Notes under the pieces: model-generated | What the model was told of the DNA's origin: nothing | Database searches by the model: none | The model's input: the letters and a program-made list of their open reading frames with translations, nothing else | Position numbers and translations under genes: made by a program | NCBI GenBank assembly: GCA_008373095.1 | Contig: RQOP01000051.1 | Coordinates: 18,047-82,046 of the forward strand | Direction: 5' to 3' | Length of the DNA stretch: 64,000 nucleotides | Source of the DNA: SAR202 cluster bacterium | GTDB lineage: Bacteria; Chloroflexota; Dehalococcoidia; Lucifugimonadales; UBA826 | Shown: one piece after another, positions 33,863-51,587 of the stretch | How positions within the stretch are numbered: the stretch's first letter is position 1 | How the letters are laid out: the number at the start of each line of letters is the position of its first letter

Positions 33863-34819
33863 TTGGTTACGGATCCTAATGAATTTAAAGGTGTCATTAA
33901 GAAAATAAAAGATAATATTCAAAAAGTTATTGTTGGCAAATCAGATGTTATCGATTCGGTCTTGATTTCCATATTGTGTAATGGTCATGTACTTGTTGAA
34001 GATGTACCTGGCTCAGGTAAAACTACCTTGGCTCGAGCGGTAGCTTCTTCTCTAGATTGTAGTTTCGGAAGAATTCAATTCACACCTGACTTAATGCCAT
34101 CTGACGTTGTTGGTGTCAACTGGTTTAATCAAAAATCAAGCGAATTTGAATTTCAGAGTGGTCCAATATTTAACCAAATAATACTGGCTGATGAAATAAA
34201 TAGAGCAACTCCAAGAACTCAATCGGCCCTGCTTGAATCTATGCAGGAAACACAAGTAACTGTAGATGGAGATAGTCGCAGTTTACCAACACCATTCATT
34301 GTGTTGGCTACTCAAAACCCTCTGGACATGGAGGGAACCTTTCCCCTTCCAGAAGCACAGTTGGATAGGTTTTTAATGAAAATTTCATTGGGTTATCCCT
34401 CTGAAAAAGAGGAATCGGACATCATTCTTAGGTTTCATAAAGAAGGTTATTCTGAAAATATACAACCGGTTGCAAACGGGGAAACAATAAAGGATATGGA
34501 GAAATTTTCGTCATCGGTTAAAGTGGAAGAGAACATTCGTGACTATATTATATCGATAGTTAGAGCAACTCGAGAAAATGATAAATTGATTGTTGGGGCT
34601 AGCCCAAGAGGATCTTTAGGTCTATATAAATGTAGCCAAGCGAACGCAGCATTACATGGTAGGGACTATGTAATACCTGATGATGTTAAAACTCTTACTA
34701 ATTCGGTGTTGTCACATAGGATCATACCTACATCTAACGCTCGGCTGAGAGGGTTTGGTGGAAATGAAATATTAGAAGAAATAGTTTCAGAAATCCCTGT
34801 GCCAATGGAAGTAAGTTAA
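33863..34819 (+). CDS. MoxR-family AAA+ ATPase
   Basis: Walker A VPGSGKTTLA, Walker B ILADEINRA, and QNPLDMEGTFPLPEAQLDRF. TTG start after AAAGGGAG. Confidence 0.88.
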   Translation: MVTDPNEFKGVIKKIKDNIQKVIVGKSDVIDSVLISILCNGHVLVEDVPGSGKTTLARAVASSLDCSFGRIQFTPDLMPSDVVGVNWFNQKSSEFEFQSGPIFNQIILADEINRATPRTQSALLESMQETQVTVDGDSRSLPTPFIVLATQNPLDMEGTFPLPEAQLDRFLMKISLGYPSEKEESDIILRFHKEGYSENIQPVANGETIKDMEKFSSSVKVEENIRDYIISIVRATRENDKLIVGASPRGSLGLYKCSQANAALHGRDYVIPDDVKTLTNSVLSHRIIPTSNARLRGFGGNEILEEIVSEIPVPMEVS

Positions 34820-34828
34820 TCTAAAGGT

Positions 34829-36064
34829 ATGGTTAAGAAGTTTTGGCATGACTTTTGGATTCTGTTAATAGTTACCTTAGTAATTATTGGAGTCTTTTCA
34901 GGTCAAGGAATGCTTATAGGCTTGTCTGTTATGAGTCTCCTTGTGGTTTGTACGGCATGGTTATGGAACAAAGTTTCACTCGAAAATCTAGACTATATCA
35001 GGGTGATACCACAGAAAAGGGTTTTTATTGGAGATACTGTCCCTTTTCGTATTGAGCTTCACAATAAAAAACCAATACCAGTGCCAAGGATCGATATAGT
35101 AGATGATATTCCCGACTGCTTGAACCTTGTTGGCCCAGACATTAAACCAAGTGCAACTTTCGACGCTGTTTCAATGACCCACTCAACCTCTGTGTCCGCC
35201 TATCAAAAGACATCATGGGATTATTCACTTAAACCCAATAAAAGAGGGTTCCACCGTTTGGGGTCTGTGAATATTTTGGGGGGCGATATCTTTGGTTTAT
35301 TTCAGAGTAAAAAAACCTCTCCTACTCGAGATTACATATTGGTTTATCCTCAGGTAATAAATTTACCTGATCTTGGCATGCCTGAATCAAGGCCATTGGG
35401 TGACAAAATTACCGGTCTAAACATATATCAAGATGTGTTTTGGAATAGAGGTATAAGGACTTATGAGAAGGGAGATCCTCTAAATACAATTGACTGGAAA
35501 TATACGGCCAAAAAATCACAATTAATGGTCAAAACATTTGAATCCACGAATAAAAATGATGTTATTTTGGCCGTCTCGGTTGAAACATCTGCAAAAGTGT
35601 GGGAAGGCTATTCTGCAATAAATTTAGAACGAGTAATAACGGCCGCAGCTTCTATTGCTAGCAATTGTAGCCTTGAAGGGTTCAGCCTTGGGTTATTTTC
35701 CAATGGTACCCCTGTACTATCGGACTTACCCATGAAAATACCTGCATCTCAATCAGAGGATCAACTAAGATTGATATTGGAAACATTAGCTACCCTAGGA
35801 CCGATTGCGTCAGGCTCTATTTCCGAAAATTTGAACACTTGGTATAAAAGTTTTCCATTAGGCTCTACGGTGGTTTTGGTTACCTCTTTTTTTACCCAAG
35901 ATTTGCTGGATTCTCTAAGGAATATTGAAAAATTTGGGTGCAAGGTAGTTCTTGTTAACGTTTCCGATGAGCTGTGTGATATCACAGAGGAAGAGTTCAT
36001 AAAATACGAGATTGGAGCTCATTTTAGTCGTATGGAGTCAGCAGGTGAATTCGTACCAGTCTAA
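34829..36064 (+). CDS. DUF58-domain protein
   Basis: Two N-terminal TM segments, and RTYEKGDPLNTIDWKYTAKKSQLMVKTFE, the DUF58 signature. Confidence 0.8.
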   Translation: MVKKFWHDFWILLIVTLVIIGVFSGQGMLIGLSVMSLLVVCTAWLWNKVSLENLDYIRVIPQKRVFIGDTVPFRIELHNKKPIPVPRIDIVDDIPDCLNLVGPDIKPSATFDAVSMTHSTSVSAYQKTSWDYSLKPNKRGFHRLGSVNILGGDIFGLFQSKKTSPTRDYILVYPQVINLPDLGMPESRPLGDKITGLNIYQDVFWNRGIRTYEKGDPLNTIDWKYTAKKSQLMVKTFESTNKNDVILAVSVETSAKVWEGYSAINLERVITAAASIASNCSLEGFSLGLFSNGTPVLSDLPMKIPASQSEDQLRLILETLATLGPIASGSISENLNTWYKSFPLGSTVVLVTSFFTQDLLDSLRNIEKFGCKVVLVNVSDELCDITEEEFIKYEIGAHFSRMESAGEFVPV

Positions 36065-40396: not shown

Positions 40397-41584
40397 CTAA
40401 TTTAATCTTTCAAAAATTGTTGCAACCCCTTGGCCGCCTCCCACACACATTGTTACCAAGCCAGTTGACGAGTCTGATCTTTCCATTTCTTCCATCAACT
40501 TTACCGTCATTATTGCCCCAGTGGCCCCGACCGGATGCCCAAGGCTTATACCGCTGCCATTTATATTTGTTCTATCTATGTCAAGGTCAAGTTCTCTTAT
40601 GCAATACAGTGCCTGAGATGCAAAAGCTTCATTAAGCTCTATGACATCGATATCATCAACCGACATGCCGGATTTCTTCATGGCCTTTTCCACTGCCGGA
40701 ACTGGTCCTGTACCCATTACGGCAGGCTCTACTCCTGCGATTCCTCTGGTGTGCCATTTCATCCTGGGTTTTAATCCTAAATCTGCAGCTTTTGTTGCAG
40801 ACATCATTACTATTGCGGCCGATCCGTCATTGATGCTTGAAGCATTTCCTGCGGTAACTGTCCCATCTTTTTTAAAGACGGGTCGTAGATTTGCTAGGCC
40901 TTCTATCGTTGTATCGGCCCTAGGTCCTTCATCTTCAGTAACAATAACGGCGTCACCTCTTCTCTGTGGAACGGATACCTCAGTGATTTGGTCGGAAAAT
41001 CTACCTTGAGTAATTGCACTGCTTGCACGGTGGTGGCTAATGAGGGCGAGTTCATCTTGGTCAGATCTAGAAACCGAAAATCGTTCTGCGACATTTTCAG
41101 CTGTCACCCCCATATGGTACCTGTTGACGGGACATCCCAAACCTTCCGTAAGGCCGTCTACCAACTGTGAATTACCCATTCTTAGTCCATCAAACCGAGC
41201 CCTGTATTCTATAAGGAACGGCACTTGGCTCATATTTTCCGTACCACCTGCAACAACTATTTCGGCCTCTCCCGTACGTACAAGCTGAGCGGCCATATTT
41301 ATAGCCTCAAGACCAGAAGAGCATTGTCGGTTCACGGCAATCGTAGGGGTTTCATGAGGTATGCCTGATTTCAATGAAGCTAGACGAGCAGCGTAACCTG
41401 CTTCAGCTGCCTGAATAGCATTACCTAATACAACCTCATCTACCATGTCCGGTGATATTCCAGCTCTTTCAATGGCAGCTTTTATTGCAATGGCTCCGAG
41501 ATCTGGAGCACTAACGTCTTTGAAAGCTCCACCAAACCTACCTACAGGAGTTCTAGCTCCTGAAACGATTACCGCGTCATTCAT
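40397..41584 (-). CDS. acetyl-CoA C-acetyltransferase (thiolase II)
   Basis: VNRQCSSGLEA (nucleophilic Cys), GHPVGATG and MCVGGGQG motifs. Confidence 0.9.
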   Translation of the reverse strand: MNDAVIVSGARTPVGRFGGAFKDVSAPDLGAIAIKAAIERAGISPDMVDEVVLGNAIQAAEAGYAARLASLKSGIPHETPTIAVNRQCSSGLEAINMAAQLVRTGEAEIVVAGGTENMSQVPFLIEYRARFDGLRMGNSQLVDGLTEGLGCPVNRYHMGVTAENVAERFSVSRSDQDELALISHHRASSAITQGRFSDQITEVSVPQRRGDAVIVTEDEGPRADTTIEGLANLRPVFKKDGTVTAGNASSINDGSAAIVMMSATKAADLGLKPRMKWHTRGIAGVEPAVMGTGPVPAVEKAMKKSGMSVDDIDVIELNEAFASQALYCIRELDLDIDRTNINGSGISLGHPVGATGAIMTVKLMEEMERSDSSTGLVTMCVGGGQGVATIFERLN

Positions 41585-41723: not shown

Positions 41724-43583
41724 GTGTTCGTTATTGGTACAGCTGGTCACGTTGATCATGGAAAATCTACACTTGTGGAATCTTTAACCGGGATAGATCC
41801 AGACAGGTTTCAAGAAGAGAAAGATAGAGGCATGACGATTGACATAGGTTTCGCCTGGATCACTCTTCCCTCCGGCAGAGAAGTAAGCATAGTAGATGTC
41901 CCTGGCCATGAGAAATTTGTCAGCAACATGCTCGCAGGAGTTGGGGGAGTGGATATGGCGCTATTAGTAGTTGCTGCTGATGAATCTGTAATGCCTCAAA
42001 CTAAGGAACATCTTGCGATTTTAGATTTATTGGGAGTGAGTAATGGTGTTGTAGTAGTCACAAAGAAAGATTTGGTTGATGAGGATTGGCTTCAGTTGGT
42101 TCATTCTGAAATACAAGATATGTTGAGTGTGACTACCCTTAAAGATGCTGAAATAGTATCTGTTTCGGCAGCGACAAAAGTCGGACTTGTAGAACTATTG
42201 GAGACGATAGATGTTGCGCTCAATAAGACCGAAGTAAAGAAAGATCTTAATAGACCTAGATTACCTATAGATCGATCTTTCTCAATCAGTGGATTTGGAA
42301 CAGTTGTAACAGGTACCTTAATAGATGGATCTTTATCAGTTGGCCAAGAGATAGAGATCATTCCAGGAGGGTTGTCAGCCCGCATTCGAGGTCTTCAGTC
42401 TCATGGTAAATCCGAAGCCGTATTAGGGCCCGGGACCCGAGTTGCTGCCAATTTGTCAGGGATTGAAGCCACTCAAATTTCCAGAGGAGACGTTTTGAGT
42501 CTTCCTAATTCTATCAACATGTCAGAGGCCTTTGATGTCCGATTGCATGTGGTCGAGGATGCACCCAATCCTTTGAGGCACAATATGTTTGTAAATCTGC
42601 ATACAGGAAGTTCAGAAGTTGTTTCTCGTCTCCGCCTGCTAGAGGGGGAGCAAGTACAACCCGGGCAAAGTGCGTGGGCTCAACTTAAACCAGATAAGTC
42701 ACTACCTGTTTTAAGAGGTGATCACTTTATTATTAGATCGAATATGACCACCTTGGGTGGAGGCAACATTGTAGATACGAATGCCAAAAGGCATAGAAGA
42801 AGACATTCTCCGACCTTACAGAGGCTTGAGTCACTCGAGTACGGGACTCCTTCCGAAGTACTGGTCAGTTTTGTTGACTCAAACCCTTCTTGCAGTTTCG
42901 ATTTGTTACGCTCGATGTCATCTTTTGATGAAGTTGATTTGATTACTAACGTGCAAACTTTGATTGATGAAAAGTCTTTGGTTGCGACATCAAATAATTT
43001 AAAGAGGGCACATTTTTTTTCAAAAGAAGGTTGGGAGAAATTGGTTGATATAGCAACTAAAACCCTTGAATTGTTTCATAAGCAATTTCCCTTAAGGCAA
43101 GGTATTTCAAGGGAAGAATTGCGAAACAAACTAAGTTTGTCTCAGGGGAGTTTCAATTCTGTCATCGGCTTGCTTGAGGGGAAAAAGAGCCTAAGGGAAT
43201 CTAACTCTTTGATTTTGCTATATGATCACAAACCTGAACTCTCTGAGGAACAAAGTCAGTATGCTGAAAAGTTTGTTGGTGATATAACTGAAGGAAGATT
43301 CTCACCGCGAACCGATCTCGAAATAGATGATGACATTTTAAATTTTCTATTGGAAAAAGGAAGACTGGTGAAAGTTGCTGACGGGATTGTTTTTTCTAGC
43401 GAAATATTTGATGAAATGCTGTCAGGCCTTCGTGATTACATATCTCAAAATGACGAAATAACGGTGGGAGATTTCCGGGATCTTTACCAAACAAGTAGAA
43501 AATATGCATTGGCTGTACTAGATTACCTAGATCAGCAACAAATCACGAGACGTGTAGGAGATGCTAGAGTTTTGAGGGACTGA
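41724..43583 (+). CDS. selB: selenocysteine-specific elongation factor SelB
   Basis: The GTG start gives MFVIGTAGHVDHGKSTL. DVPGHEKF and TKKD are present, with an EF-Tu-like domain II/III. A winged-helix extension of about 270 aa follows, giving 619 aa in total. Confidence 0.85.
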   Translation: MFVIGTAGHVDHGKSTLVESLTGIDPDRFQEEKDRGMTIDIGFAWITLPSGREVSIVDVPGHEKFVSNMLAGVGGVDMALLVVAADESVMPQTKEHLAILDLLGVSNGVVVVTKKDLVDEDWLQLVHSEIQDMLSVTTLKDAEIVSVSAATKVGLVELLETIDVALNKTEVKKDLNRPRLPIDRSFSISGFGTVVTGTLIDGSLSVGQEIEIIPGGLSARIRGLQSHGKSEAVLGPGTRVAANLSGIEATQISRGDVLSLPNSINMSEAFDVRLHVVEDAPNPLRHNMFVNLHTGSSEVVSRLRLLEGEQVQPGQSAWAQLKPDKSLPVLRGDHFIIRSNMTTLGGGNIVDTNAKRHRRRHSPTLQRLESLEYGTPSEVLVSFVDSNPSCSFDLLRSMSSFDEVDLITNVQTLIDEKSLVATSNNLKRAHFFSKEGWEKLVDIATKTLELFHKQFPLRQGISREELRNKLSLSQGSFNSVIGLLEGKKSLRESNSLILLYDHKPELSEEQSQYAEKFVGDITEGRFSPRTDLEIDDDILNFLLEKGRLVKVADGIVFSSEIFDEMLSGLRDYISQNDEITVGDFRDLYQTSRKYALAVLDYLDQQQITRRVGDARVLRD

Positions 43584-43618: not shown

Positions 43619-43960
43619 TTACAAGCTGGGCTGGTAGCCTAATTCTTCTAATAGGGTGATTGCGACTTGAGACGCTACTTCCGACTCATCTACACAAATT
43701 TTTTCTATAGCCATTTTAAAAATAGTTAATTGTCCTCTGAGGACAGAGTCTGATTGATACGTGTCTGACTTAGGGATGGTTACGAGAAGGCTCAGTAGAT
43801 CAATTTCGTCCTCAACGTCAGTGCCAAGAAGGTCAGATTTCTCAGCGATATCTGATACCACAACGTCGATTTCCTCAAGGCATGTCTTTAATTCATTGGG
43901 CAGTTCTGCCACAGCTGTATCAATGATTGATTGAAATTTTCGCCCTGTTAAAGTCACCAC
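43619..43960 (-). CDS. small acidic protein resembling the Zincin_1 (DUF1025) family but lacking any His
   Basis: The F..II..A...LP.EL...L..IDVVVSD...LLG pattern is recalled from memory of the family. The protein contains no histidine. Confidence 0.35.
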   Translation of the reverse strand: MVTLTGRKFQSIIDTAVAELPNELKTCLEEIDVVVSDIAEKSDLLGTDVEDEIDLLSLLVTIPKSDTYQSDSVLRGQLTIFKMAIEKICVDESEVASQVAITLLEELGYQPSL

Positions 43961-47067: not shown

Positions 47068-47523
47068 TCAATTGCAGCTGCTACAAGGGCACATTGTTCT
47101 TAACGTATCAAAGGGGAAAATACCAGTGTAGTGGGCATCGCTCCACAAAAATTGAATCGCGTAATTGCCTATCATTAAATGGTCTTCTGCCACTAAATCA
47201 GAAGGGACACTAGCAGGGTCCAGTAATTGTCTTTTGCTCCACTCTTCAACGCATTCGGCACATTGGCAACTGATTCTAATTTCTCTAGCCCCATATGTGC
47301 TTTCGTGCCCGTCGTCCCATCGTATTAATATTTTATCGCCGTAAACACCGACTTTTTCTATTTTTATGCCTTGAGTCAAATCTCGCTCCATTTCTTCGTC
47401 TACATACAAGGATAACTTTACACAATATTTTTGGACAGGTAAAAAATCAAATAAAACTTGTTCTATAATCTCATCATGCCCGAGGTAAAAGAAATTATTA
47501 ATCGAGAGTTCATAATTTGGCAA
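47068..47523 (-). CDS. DUF971-domain protein (gamma-butyrobetaine hydroxylase N-terminal-like)
   Basis: ILIRWDDGHESTY, CQCAEC and FLWSDAHYTGIFPFDTLR motifs. Confidence 0.7.
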   Translation of the reverse strand: MPNYELSINNFFYLGHDEIIEQVLFDFLPVQKYCVKLSLYVDEEMERDLTQGIKIEKVGVYGDKILIRWDDGHESTYGAREIRISCQCAECVEEWSKRQLLDPASVPSDLVAEDHLMIGNYAIQFLWSDAHYTGIFPFDTLRTMCPCSSCN

Positions 47524-48809
47524 AGCGTAGGATAGGAAAAATTATTACGAGGCCTGGGTTAGGTTATGGCGATTCTGACATTGAAATTCCAATAGCTCAA
47601 GATCTTCTTAAAGTTGAAGGGATACCACAAAGAGACGCCGAAGTGTCCTATTACAGCAGAGAGTTTCCTCTGGAAAGTTTCGCGTTGGAGCATAGCGCAT
47701 CAGCGGAATGGGCCCAAACTGAAAGATCTGAGCACACACCGGCAACGGAAGAACTATACCGTGATTACCAAAAAAAGATGGCCCCATGGATTGAAAAGAT
47801 AAAACGGTCTGGAGATAAAACCCCAAAACCACCTGTAGATATAGGCGATCATACGGAGGACATACGGGATAAGGCAAGGCAGCTTGGATATGGGGAAATT
47901 GGGTTTACAAAGTTTGACAGAAGGTATGTCTATCAGAGTCGTAAAGAGTTTGTAAGAACTGATCTTCCTAATGCAATATGCCTTGCGTATGAACAAGGAT
48001 ACGTAGAAACCCAAGATATGCCTTCTTATGTGTCTGAAATCGCTCAGGGTGATGCATACATGTCTCAGGCGGAGCTATCCTTGAAACTTGTTGAATTCAT
48101 AAATGAAATGGGGTTTAGTGCACAGATATCGGGCCCAGCTTGGCATTTTGGTCCCATGATTCCAATGTTTGTTGAAGCTGGATTAGGGCAGTTGGGGGTG
48201 AACGGACAATTGCTTTCGCCACATTTTGGTTCACGCGCTAGGTTGCAGGTGATAATAACCAATGCTCCAATTAAATATGATTCTGCGGAAGATTATGGCA
48301 TATATAAATTTTGCGAGCTTTGCCAAGTTTGTTTCATGAGGTGCCCAGGTAAGGCGATCCAGGCTCAGAGAGTTTGGTTCAGAGGAGTAGAAAAAAATAA
48401 ACTAATTGCCAAACGCTGTAGGCCTGTGATGGCTCGATATTCAGGTTGCGGTATATGTATGAAAGTTTGTCCGATTCAAAAATACGGTATGAAACCAGTG
48501 ATGGAACATTATGTTGAAACAGGTGAGGTGTTGGGTAAAGGTACCGATGATCTTGAATCCTATGAGCTTGAAAACAAAGGATATTTTAGGAGCGGCAAAG
48601 TGCCTGTTTTTGATAGAGATTTCTTTGATATGCCTGAAGGAAGGTTGGAACATAATTTGTTGGAAAAATTGAGGAGTGATCTTAATGATTCAACGAGTCT
48701 CGATGATAAATACGAACATAAGTTACTTTTGGAATTTAAGGACCGCTTAGATACCTCATCTGAAAATAAAGGTAAGGTAGTAGACATGGGGATGGATATG
48801 GAATTTTAG
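47517..48809 (+). CDS. reductive dehalogenase / epoxyqueuosine reductase (RdhA/QueG)-superfamily Fe-S protein
   Basis: EAGLGQLGVNGQLLSPHFGSRARLQVIITN is followed by CELCQVCFMRCP and CGICMKVCP cluster motifs. The start is unresolved: the track TTG overlaps the divergent gene's start, and the first in-frame ATG is at 47778. Confidence 0.6.
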   Translation: MAKRRIGKIITRPGLGYGDSDIEIPIAQDLLKVEGIPQRDAEVSYYSREFPLESFALEHSASAEWAQTERSEHTPATEELYRDYQKKMAPWIEKIKRSGDKTPKPPVDIGDHTEDIRDKARQLGYGEIGFTKFDRRYVYQSRKEFVRTDLPNAICLAYEQGYVETQDMPSYVSEIAQGDAYMSQAELSLKLVEFINEMGFSAQISGPAWHFGPMIPMFVEAGLGQLGVNGQLLSPHFGSRARLQVIITNAPIKYDSAEDYGIYKFCELCQVCFMRCPGKAIQAQRVWFRGVEKNKLIAKRCRPVMARYSGCGICMKVCPIQKYGMKPVMEHYVETGEVLGKGTDDLESYELENKGYFRSGKVPVFDRDFFDMPEGRLEHNLLEKLRSDLNDSTSLDDKYEHKLLLEFKDRLDTSSENKGKVVDMGMDMEF

Positions 48810-48908
48810 TCTCAAGTTCGTCTTGTGAATTATTGACCCGTGGTTTCAATTTGTGGTAGCTTGAGCCCATATAAAAATGGACACCGCAACTTCGATAAGG
48901 AGGGTAAC

Positions 48909-49184
48909 ATGGCAGGTGAAGGAAAATTTGAGGTAGAAATTATTTACTGTGTGCCTTGATCACATCACAGTATGGCGGCCTGGATGGCCAACGAGTTTTT
49001 CGCAGAAGCAGGTAATGATATTGCAATAAGAATCACCCCGGGTACCGGTGGGATTTATCAGGTATTTGCTGACGGTGAAAAGATATACGATAAGGCAGAA
49101 GAGGATGGCGTATTTCCTAATTTGCCGAGAGTCAAGGAACTGAGAGCTATTATTAGGGAAAAATTAACGGCTCCGGTGGCTTAG
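48909..49184 (+). CDS. SelW/Rdx-family selenoprotein (Sec encoded by TGA at 48957-48959)
   Basis: ATG at 48909 lies 5 nt after the SD AAGGAGGG. The in-frame TGA gives IIYCVPU (CxxU). The frame is the same as the track ORF 48972..49184. GGIYQVFADGEKIY matches the Rdx pattern. Confidence 0.75.
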
Positions 49185-49209
49185 ATACAAATAGTATTTC
49201 ATTTTAAAG

Positions 49210-49253
49210 AACCCTGGGTGGGATTTCGATCAAACCCGGGGTTTTCTTTTTTT
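49210..49253 (+). terminator. rho-independent terminator after the selenoprotein gene
   Basis: AACCCTGGGT (49210-49219) pairs with ACCCGGGGTT (49234-49243), with one G:U pair. It is followed by TTCTTTTTTT. Confidence 0.75.
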
Positions 49254-49298
49254 GATGGATGGGATATGTGCAGGGTATGGAGATTATTTAGGTAATTT

Positions 49299-51587
49299 AT
49301 GCAAGTATTTGACGATATAAATGTAATTGACACGACGACCGGAAAGGCGGGCTCAATTTGTTCGATGTTTCTGGGTGATAATGGAGCTAGGATCATTAGG
49401 ATTCCTGTTGGTTCTAATTCCCTTGCTGACGATCCGGAGCTAGCAACGATACATAGAGGTAAAGAACTCCTGAATCTTGATTTAGATACCCAGTATGATT
49501 CGTTTATGAACTTTGTTCAAAAGTCGGACATCTTGATAGAAGACCTTTTACCTTCCGACCCACTTCAAGAAAAAATAGGATTTGAAGCTCTACGCAAAAA
49601 CAATCCTCAATTAATACATTGTTCGATCACTTCTTATGGGAACAAAGGGCCGCTAAAGAATGGATTCCCGATAGCGGACCTAATAAAGGCCAGAACGGGT
49701 ATTTTAGATAGTATGCCAGGGTTTGAAGAAGGATCTACTCATGTAGCCCACCCGCTGATAGAGGTGGGAGCGGGCCTACTGGCGACTCTTGGCCTTACAG
49801 CGGGCTTGTTTCAGCGTTTAAGTACTCACTCAGGCTTAAAAATAAATACTTCTTTGATGGCTGCTGGGCTTTTGTATATGCCCAAAGCTATTGGTGAAAG
49901 AATAAACCCTAGGCCTGTTAAAGCTACTCCTGTTGGAGGTGGACCCTTTTACAGTGTTTACGAGTGTGAGGATGGAGAGTGGATACAGTTGGGCTGTATC
50001 CATGCAGGTTTCGTAGATATAGCGGCTACCGTGATGGGTATAGCAGAGGTTATGACCGATCCAAAATTTGGTGATGGTCGAAGCCCGGTTAATGAAGAGG
50101 CCAGAGAGGAACTTTTCAACATAGTCAAAGAAGTAATGGAGACTAAATCATCCATTGAATGGGCTGAATTGTTTGAATCAGTTGATGTTCCCTTCGCGCA
50201 TGCAGAAAGCGCTGAGTCAGCCATGGATAATGAACAAGTTGTCCATAATGAAATGGTACAGCAGCTCAAAGATCCTATTTTTGGCCAAATGCTTCAGTAT
50301 GGATTACCAATAAAATTTTCCGAAACGCCTGGTTCAATTAAGGGACCTCGTGAATTGGATTCAAAAAGTAATGTTACGTTTATGCAATCATCGAGTTGGG
50401 AGCATAAAGGTTCCCTTGATAGATCTACAGAGCTTCCCCTTGAGGGAATTAAAGTGGCGGATATTACCAATGTCATAGCGGGCCCTACCATGGGGCGTCT
50501 TCTTGCTGATTTGGGAGCTGATGTATTAAAAATAGAACCTCCGTATGGAGATATATCTAGGCCGGCTGGCGGTCGCTATTTTCATGCATTGAATGCTAAC
50601 AAGAGATCAATATCGATTGACGCAAAAAATGAGATGGCCAAAAAAGCCTTGCAGGAAATTGTAGGGTCTTGTGACATTATGGTTGCGAATATGAGACCCG
50701 GTGCGACAGGCAGAATGGGGTTAGGCACAGAAACATTGAAAACATTAAATCCTAAAATGATAGAAGTTCATGTTACCGCATTTGGATGGGATGGACCTTT
50801 TGCCAAACGTCCTGGAGTTGATCCCTTGGCTCAAGCCTGGATGGGCCTCCAAGTGGCTCAAGGAGGAGAAGGGAACCCCCCATCTTTTCTTTCTCCGGTT
50901 GCACCAACTGACTACACAGGGGGTTGTTTGGGTGCCCTCGGGGCCGTTATGGCTCTTTACGCTAGAGAGAAAAATGGTATTGGACAGGTTGTTAATACTA
51001 ACTTACTCAATGCAGGCTGTTTACTTCTGGCTGGAGATTTCGCCCGCTATGAAAATAAGGTGCCTCGAAGACTTTCTGACAAACATCAAAATGGACTTAG
51101 TGATTTCCATCGTTTATATCAAACTCTTGATGGCTATATTTACGTCAGTGCAGAGCGCTCAGACTTAGCAGAGAGTTTTACTGGATTGCTAGGATTACAA
51201 AATTCTTTCAACAAAGGGAAAGAAAAGGAACATACTGAGTTAGGTAATCAAATTCAGGATGTCATAAAACTTAAAGAATCTGCCCATTGGGTTGAATTAA
51301 TGGGCTTAAGGAATATACCTTGTTCTATCTCCATAGAGAATTATGAACTTTCTTTTTTTCAGGATGAACAAGCTTTCCAAAACAATATGATTTCTAAAAG
51401 CGTGCTTGATGACGGGAGAGAGTATGCTTTTTCTCACAACCTTATCCAATTTCCGGAATTACCAATTCCTGTCATTAAACCGACTCCAATGTTGGGAGAA
51501 CACAGCATTGAAATACTTAGAGAGTTTGGAATAGAGGAATCCTTGATAGATTCAATGATTGAGACCGGATCTTTGATAACATCCTGA
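49299..51587 (+). CDS. tandem-fused family III (CaiB/BaiF) CoA-transferase, two complete modules
   Basis: Module 1 starts at INVIDTTTGKAGS. Module 2 starts at IKVADITNVIAGPTMGRLLADLGADVLKIEPP, around aa 385. Both are full length (about 375 aa each). Confidence 0.8.
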   Translation: MQVFDDINVIDTTTGKAGSICSMFLGDNGARIIRIPVGSNSLADDPELATIHRGKELLNLDLDTQYDSFMNFVQKSDILIEDLLPSDPLQEKIGFEALRKNNPQLIHCSITSYGNKGPLKNGFPIADLIKARTGILDSMPGFEEGSTHVAHPLIEVGAGLLATLGLTAGLFQRLSTHSGLKINTSLMAAGLLYMPKAIGERINPRPVKATPVGGGPFYSVYECEDGEWIQLGCIHAGFVDIAATVMGIAEVMTDPKFGDGRSPVNEEAREELFNIVKEVMETKSSIEWAELFESVDVPFAHAESAESAMDNEQVVHNEMVQQLKDPIFGQMLQYGLPIKFSETPGSIKGPRELDSKSNVTFMQSSSWEHKGSLDRSTELPLEGIKVADITNVIAGPTMGRLLADLGADVLKIEPPYGDISRPAGGRYFHALNANKRSISIDAKNEMAKKALQEIVGSCDIMVANMRPGATGRMGLGTETLKTLNPKMIEVHVTAFGWDGPFAKRPGVDPLAQAWMGLQVAQGGEGNPPSFLSPVAPTDYTGGCLGALGAVMALYAREKNGIGQVVNTNLLNAGCLLLAGDFARYENKVPRRLSDKHQNGLSDFHRLYQTLDGYIYVSAERSDLAESFTGLLGLQNSFNKGKEKEHTELGNQIQDVIKLKESAHWVELMGLRNIPCSISIENYELSFFQDEQAFQNNMISKSVLDDGREYAFSHNLIQFPELPIPVIKPTPMLGEHSIEILREFGIEESLIDSMIETGSLITS

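Follow-up and report, generated by a model that had tools for sequence, protein, structure and literature searches.

An in-frame UGA and a minimal candidate SECIS hairpin in a predicted Rdx/SelW-like selenoprotein gene of a SAR202 bacterium

SelW-like proteins with a CxxU motif were reported in 2005 and 2008 as the most abundant selenoprotein family of marine prokaryotes (PMC1088965, PMC2398784). In the Global Ocean Sampling (GOS) data they again came out first, with 427 forms carrying selenocysteine (Sec) and 56 carrying Cys (PMC2398784). The redox role of the bacterial members of the Rdx family has been deduced from the CxxU motif and from a report that SelW interacts with glutathione (PMC1088965). 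Metagenome-assembled genomes (MAGs) of Dehalococcoidia, with 46-49 selenoprotein genes, rank among the first ten in BSepDB (PMC13326102). Our literature search for SAR202 together with selenocysteine returned nothing specific, only three incidental mentions. Earlier publications cover this family with its CxxU motif and its marine abundance, as well as the wealth of selenoproteins in Dehalococcoidia.

We analyzed a 64-kb stretch of DNA from a SAR202 cluster bacterium (hereafter the window) and found that positions 48909-49184 of its forward strand hold one gene, which encodes a Rdx/SelW-like protein of 91 aa with the motif C14-V-P-U17. The protein has in common with the marine SelW-like family the CxxU motif, a length of about 90 aa, a marine setting, and a majority of Sec over Cys forms (427:56 in GOS, 130:5 among the loci scored here). 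Compared with the marine surveys, the clade represented by the window is that of the Dehalococcoidia/SAR202. The first codon, ATG at 48909-48911, stands 4 nt behind a Shine-Dalgarno (SD) sequence (AAGGAGGG, 48897-48904, read directly). Sixteen sense codons (MAGEGKFEVEIIYCVP) then precede a TGA at 48957-48959, which is residue 17 of the product and occupies a codon position shared across relatives. Past this TGA the frame stays open through Met 48972 up to a TAG at 49182-49184, and the protein reads MAGEGKFEVEIIYCVPUSHH... from its start. The only output of mechanical ORF calling at this place was a 70-aa ORF at 48972-49184, which is also the piece that the ORF track had offered to the first-pass annotation. 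That annotation had nevertheless proposed that the UGA is read as Sec, and its positions for the SD, the ATG, the 16 codons, the TGA, Met 48972, and the hairpin downstream were all correct on re-reading. On the comparative evidence given below, we consider it very likely that 48909-49184 is a selenoprotein gene of the Rdx family (SelW/SelT/SelH), in which the UGA is read as Sec by means of SelB and this hairpin.

Membership in the family is observed directly. With U written as C, the 91-aa translation matched the Pfam Rdx family (PF10262) at 58.6 bits (cut-off 22.6) over positions 1-73 of the 74 in the profile, and the 70-aa ORF alone scored 36.8 bits over positions 16-73. With the 16 N-terminal codons the match gains 22 bits and reaches the start of the profile; hence, the extension is the missing N-terminus of the domain. 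The protein also scored 37.5 bits against TIGR02174 (CXXU_selWTH; curated cut-off 34.2; profile positions 1-72 of 74), and the assignment to the Rdx family made in the first-pass annotation thus holds with two profiles above their cut-offs. Against the NF041051 (SelTWH_Campy) model the score was 39.6 bits, below the equivalog cut-off of 88 bits, and the protein is not a member of this Campylobacter-type subfamily.

Among proteins of known structure, the sequence relatives are the bacterial Rdx proteins 2oka, 2ojl, 2obk, 2fa8, 2p0g, and 3dex (E-values from 1e-8 to 1e-10), which are 27-35% identical to the window protein and have the PGTGG...DG...FP motifs in common with it. The CxxC of these relatives, 2oka and 2ojl among them, aligns to C14/U17, in line with the CxxU redox motif proposed earlier. 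The solved bacterial proteins carry Cys at the position of U17, whereas the window protein is predicted to carry Sec. We approached the fold through an AlphaFold model of a natural Cys orthologue, P0001 (82% identical, pLDDT 85.7). The model has the topology beta1(7-14), CxxC, alpha1(20-37), beta2, beta3, beta4, alpha2. Its best Foldseek matches were SelW-related structures and mouse SelW (2npb), with TM-scores of 0.73-0.76 and, for the solved bacterial Rdx structures, an rmsd of 1.5-2 A; generic thioredoxins scored well behind. The window protein is therefore predicted, from this model of its orthologue, to have a thioredoxin-like fold with the CxxU between beta1 and alpha1. The similarity to mouse SelW concerns the order of elements, beta1-CxxU-alpha1-beta2-beta3-beta4-alpha2 (TMq 0.76 for the P0001 model), and the position of the CxxU, whereas the sequences are only 16% identical. 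The two also differ in the place of the signal: mammalian SelW has a eukaryotic SECIS in the 3' UTR, whereas the candidate SECIS described here lies inside the coding region, after the UGA.

To see how the codon behaves among relatives, we collected related loci from GTDB genomes and JGI/ENA metagenomes, 141 in all, and could score 135 of them at the Sec codon. Every genome record among the 141 bears the name Dehalococcoidia, Chloroflexota, or SAR202; of the metagenome contigs, those with a descriptive name are marine. Codon 17 is TGA in 130 of the 135 scorable loci, TGC in three, and TGT in two. The candidate reading of the UGA as Sec proposed at the outset thus finds, at the very same codon, TGA in 130/135 loci and a Cys codon in 5/135, and in the alignment the Cys orthologues read straight through the UGA site. 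The TGA-bearing loci span 55-99% protein identity and come from many MAGs and metagenomes. The recurrence of the in-frame TGA, together with the completion of the profile, is far beyond chance. Conservation of the protein covers codons 1-16 before the UGA as well as codons 18-61 after it. In codons 2-16 the amino acids are kept and the synonymous sites are free (entropies of 1.6-1.9 bits at Gly3, Gly5, and Val15), and therefore the part upstream of the UGA is translated and under purifying selection. Among 99 unique Sec-type loci, codon 1 is ATG in 96 and has an SD-like motif at -17 to -4 in 97. An SD-like motif precedes the first internal ATG in only 22 of the 99, where it arises from Gly-Val codons. 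Conservation upstream of the internal Met is thus evident in the start codon, in the SD, and in the amino acids. As to the end of the gene, the terminal stop of these 99 orthologues is TAG in 48, TAA in 45, and TGA in 6, and TGA appears to be avoided as a terminator.

These data allow other explanations of the TGA to be weighed. One is that it is a true stop, that the gene begins at Met 48972 and yields 70 aa, and that the codons upstream are untranslated or encode a separate micropeptide. Mechanical ORF calling takes this side, and so do most public gene calls: our protein search returned a short class of more than 40 clusters of 63-72 aa, cut at the UGA, next to a full-length class of 91-95 aa with Cys, Trp, or (singleton P0003) Leu at the critical position. 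The 70-aa product would, however, lose beta1 and the whole redox motif; codons 1-16 are conserved as protein, with free synonymous variation, in 130 loci; the ATG and the SD mark codon 1 instead of Met22; and the orthologues with a Cys codon are read without interruption. We give this explanation very little weight. It is also highly improbable that the UGA is decoded as another amino acid, be it by reassignment to Trp or Gly or by near-cognate read-through as Cys or Trp, with a full-length product that is no selenoprotein. Four public calls (P0002, P0004, P0006, and P0012) do give W at this position, but they are artefacts of an alternative genetic code used in gene calling. In the window TGA is the normal stop of SelB (43581) and of a CoA-transferase (51585); therefore, the codon is not reassigned. 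Moreover, the sense codons found at the site are Cys only, bar one TTA singleton, a pattern characteristic of a Sec/Cys pair; the window encodes a dedicated SelB; and the hairpin downstream is under selection at the RNA level. That the TGA is a sequencing error or marks a pseudogene in a single assembly has next to no probability: only the general possibility of such events and one singleton with TTA (L143) speak for it, and the same TGA occurs in 130 independent loci of 55-99% protein identity. Taken together, the evidence on orthologues, codons, start, and stop use rules out that the UGA is a true stop, is reassigned, or stems from a pseudogene or a sequencing error, and we retain its reading as a probable Sec codon. 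A crude window-wide scan for an ORF continued past a TGA gave 39 candidates. A Cys placed as in C..U or U..C occurs at the Rdx locus only, and the scan revealed no further selenoprotein in the 64 kb.

The Cys forms number six in total, namely the five in the scored set and L142, which is the locus of P0001. At L142 (site 1501-1779) the codon is TGC, and in a comparison of 66 nt around it the sequence matches that of the TGA-bearing L007 at every other base, which indicates that this one-base switch from Sec to Cys is very recent. The hairpin is intact at L142 and is also retained in two other Cys forms, L016 and L124. It is broken in the remaining three of the six, L126-L128, where Ala-Ile replaces Ala-Ala. 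Earlier work has described remnants of SECIS structures in Cys forms (PMC1794560). The TTA (Leu) at the Sec site of L143:26-307 occurs on a singleton contig of 585 nt, and this locus probably reflects an error or a defunct gene copy.

The first-pass annotation had also pointed to a small hairpin after the UGA, GGCC-UGGAU-GGCC at 48977-48989. This forward-strand element is our candidate for a minimal SECIS on the basis of comparative RNA evidence, and it consists of a 4-bp stem (GGCC at 48977-80 with GGCC at 48986-89) and the loop UGGAU (48981-85), which starts 21 nt past the UGA (spacer 48960-48980). We ran RNAalifold on 76 distinct Sec-type sequences, and this hairpin was the only structure predicted. 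Its four stem pairs are formed in 99.7% of the cells across the 76 sequences, and when the 3' partners were slid by 1-3 columns as a control, pairing fell to 0-53%. Two of the four pairs change on both sides, from G-C to A-U and from C-G to U-A, with the compensatory changes confined to a few lineages (L060/L134/L136 and L121). The outermost pair is that between the third codon positions of Ala23 and Ala/Val27 and is formed in 76 of the 76 sequences (GC in 71, AU in 4, GU in 1). Both positions are synonymous and free of coding constraint, which makes this pair, in our reading of the alignment, the strongest single argument for the hairpin. The other three stem pairs and the loop are mostly fixed by the conserved Ala-Trp-Met-Ala peptide.

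The codons of the two arms are nearly frozen at their synonymous sites: Ala23 is GCG in 91/96 cases, Ala24 is GCC in 91/92, and Ala27 is GCC in 48/53. In contrast, all four Ala codons occur at Ala32 and Ala39 of this gene (1.7-1.9 bits). A conserved stem-loop 3' of the UGA is thus visible both in two covarying pairs and in frozen synonymous sites, and these patterns argue that the hairpin is under selection at the RNA level, tied to the Sec state. Some sites outside the stem are frozen as well: Pro16 (48954-56) is CCU in 97/100, Gln18 (48960-62), where present, is CAG in 47/47, and Asn28 (48990-92) is AAC in 61/61. The frozen codons 16, 18, and 28 suggest selection on the context of the UGA and on the base just 3' of the hairpin. 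A closing pair G48975-C48992 (G28-C45) may form across a small internal loop; it is compatible with 69/76 sequences and without covariation.

We compared the hairpin with the bacterial SECIS model of bSECISearch, whose criteria we took from Fig. 2 of PMC13188914. The model has an apical loop of 3-9 nt on an upper stem of 4-16 bp, a G as the first or second base of the loop, as a rule with G or U after it, a spacing between UGA and loop, and a minimum free energy (MFE) of at most -7.5 kcal/mol. The candidate agrees with it in three of these four respects. Its 5-nt loop and its 4-bp stem, the smallest allowed, lie within the size range, the loop UGGAU, with G at position 2 and then G, is invariant in 76/76 distinct sequences, and the spacing of 21 nt fits. 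Compared with the commonest loop pattern of the consensus, the loop ends in U...U without an N1-N2 pair. The energy falls short: the stem-loop of the window sequence has -6.4 kcal/mol and does not reach the threshold of -7.5 kcal/mol. In 64/76 orthologues this threshold is reached only with enclosing helices whose register is not conserved, and we found no conserved lower stem. The single-sequence fold of 48950-49020 has an MFE of -14.1 kcal/mol, no better than shuffles (z = +1.14); hence, this test by itself cannot establish a SECIS. Searches of Rfam gave no family match at gathering thresholds in the whole window, apart from one tRNA, and none but noise at E <= 10 in 48880-49260. The caution of the first-pass annotation, which had called the SECIS not established, was right in view of this fold and of an element at the minimum of the model.

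Two other structures were considered and discarded. A longer hairpin that appears in some MFE folds, with CAUC at the His codons pairing with GAUG of Trp-Met, is paired in 75.6%, and its 5' arm is free at synonymous sites. An extension of the stem to 6 bp fails since no more than 17-20 of the 76 sequences can form the two pairs it adds on the outside, so that only the 4-bp core is general.

One could thus accept the selenoprotein and still regard the 4-bp hairpin as chiefly a by-product of the Ala-Ala-Trp-Met-Ala codons, with SelB using another or a larger element. Several of the above observations go in this direction, namely the energy of -6.4 instead of -7.5 kcal/mol and a single-sequence fold without significance, a loop fixed by Trp-Met in all 76 sequences, the stem retained in three Cys forms, and the enclosing helices of differing registers in 64/76 orthologues. 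In addition, 12.6% of bacterial selenoprotein genes are without a canonical SECIS according to BSepDB (PMC13326102). Yet coding constraint leaves the two third positions of the outermost pair free, and they are paired in every one of the 76 sequences; the Ala codons are frozen in the arms and free elsewhere in the gene; and the alternative longer hairpin, paired in only three quarters of cases, has a 5' arm that varies freely. We consider the by-product explanation unlikely, if clearly more worthy of attention than the ones concerning the TGA itself. Hence, we retain the GGCC-UGGAU-GGCC hairpin as the best SECIS candidate of the locus, at the lower limit of the model, and we infer its function from its conservation.

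Part of the machinery that such a gene needs is present in the window. The gene selB (41724-43583, forward strand) encodes a complete Sec-specific elongation factor of 619 aa with the domains GTP_EFTU, GTP_EFTU_D2, Beta-barrel_SelB, SelB-wing_2, and SelB-wing_3, all above the Pfam cut-offs. It lies 5.3 kb upstream of the Rdx gene, as had been noticed at the outset (about 5 kb). The gene stands alone, flanked by genes for a thiolase (40397-41584) and a Zincin_1 protein (43619-43960), both on the reverse strand. Pfam scans of 39 ORFs found neither selA nor selD within the 64-kb window, and ARAGORN and Rfam found no tRNA-Sec (selC) there, their only tRNA being a tRNA-Gln.

On these grounds, expression of the gene most likely proceeds as follows. 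Translation starts at ATG 48909 behind the strong SD. SelB, loaded with GTP and Sec-tRNA(Sec), would bind the hairpin through its C-terminal winged helices and deliver Sec to UGA 48957 in the ribosomal A site, 21 nt before the loop, so that termination would not take place. In the product, the C14/U17 pair would cycle between a reduced selenol/thiol state and a selenenylsulfide, and the protein would act as a thiol-dependent oxidoreductase. The binding of the hairpin by SelB, the insertion of Sec, and the redox chemistry with its substrate are the parts of this scheme that we infer.

We also looked at the surroundings of the gene. Directly upstream, on the same strand, lies a gene for a 430-aa 4Fe-4S protein similar to reductive dehalogenases and QueG (RDH/QueG-like; 47517-48809), with matches to Fer4_16 and to TIGR02486 RDH, the latter at 106 bits and under the cut-off of 160. 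A promoter scan found no sigma-70 promoter on the forward strand upstream of the Rdx gene, and we found no terminator between this neighbor and the Rdx gene. As there is no sigma-70-like promoter or terminator between them, co-transcription of the two genes is possible. Downstream of the Rdx gene, 49210-49253 on the forward strand form an intrinsic terminator with a 9-bp stem (AACCCUGGG/CCCGGGGUU) followed by a U-run. The fold of 49185-49256 has -23.6 kcal/mol (z = -3.55), with none of 200 shuffles as good, and a simple pattern scanner missed it because of its long loop. The next gene (49299-51587) encodes a two-domain family III CoA-transferase (CaiB-like, tandem) of 762 aa and ends in TGA. 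On the other side, the RDH/QueG-like gene is divergent from a gene for a DUF971/GBBH-like_N protein (47068-47523, reverse strand), which ends in ...CPCSSCN and whose start overlaps that of the RDH-like gene by 7 nt in mechanical ORF calling. Elsewhere in the window, a 481-aa ORF at 36012-37457 matches no Pfam family, and its only NCBIfam hit is below threshold; it adjoins the genes for a MoxR-type AAA ATPase (33863-34819) and a DUF58 protein (34829-36064).

Of the 112 loci with enough flank, 38 have an RDH/QueG-like homologue immediately upstream in the same orientation, and the two-domain CoA-transferase lies downstream in 29/106. Both linkages are limited to certain clades and indicate at most a possible redox partner. 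The RDH/QueG-like protein may be a co-transcribed or redox partner of the selenoprotein, or its position may simply reflect synteny within a clade. A bolder combination of the above, which we offer tentatively and think more likely wrong than right, is that the SelB of SAR202/Dehalococcoidia uses a lineage-specific class of minimal SECIS (4-bp GC stem and the invariant UGGAU loop), formed by the conserved Ala-Trp-Met-Ala codons of the family and below the standard energy threshold, and that the selenoprotein is a dedicated redox partner of the RDH/QueG-like protein in a third of the loci.

The gene is a further member of the best-known selenoprotein family of marine bacteria, and it leaves selenoprotein biology unchanged. 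Since this is the commonest such family in the sea, our result is a correct identification and not a discovery. Public pipelines already label orthologues as "predicted Rdx family selenoprotein" (JGI) or "Rdx family protein, partial" (NCBI). Its practical value lies in annotation. As the first-pass annotation had expected, standard gene callers shorten the gene, and dozens of public metagenome records have it with 63-72 aa or with the UGA as Trp. The Trp calls (P0002, P0004, P0006, and P0012, all from ENA metagenomes) and the calls of 63-72 aa look like a systematic annotation error. Because of it, the catalytic residue and the first beta-strand are absent from databases for a widespread lineage of the deep ocean. 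Besides the annotation, what remains of interest is an unusually small and very well sampled SECIS candidate: the orthologue set, in which 130 forms carry Sec, 6 carry Cys, and two loci are just one base apart, provides clean natural data on a minimal in-frame bacterial SECIS.
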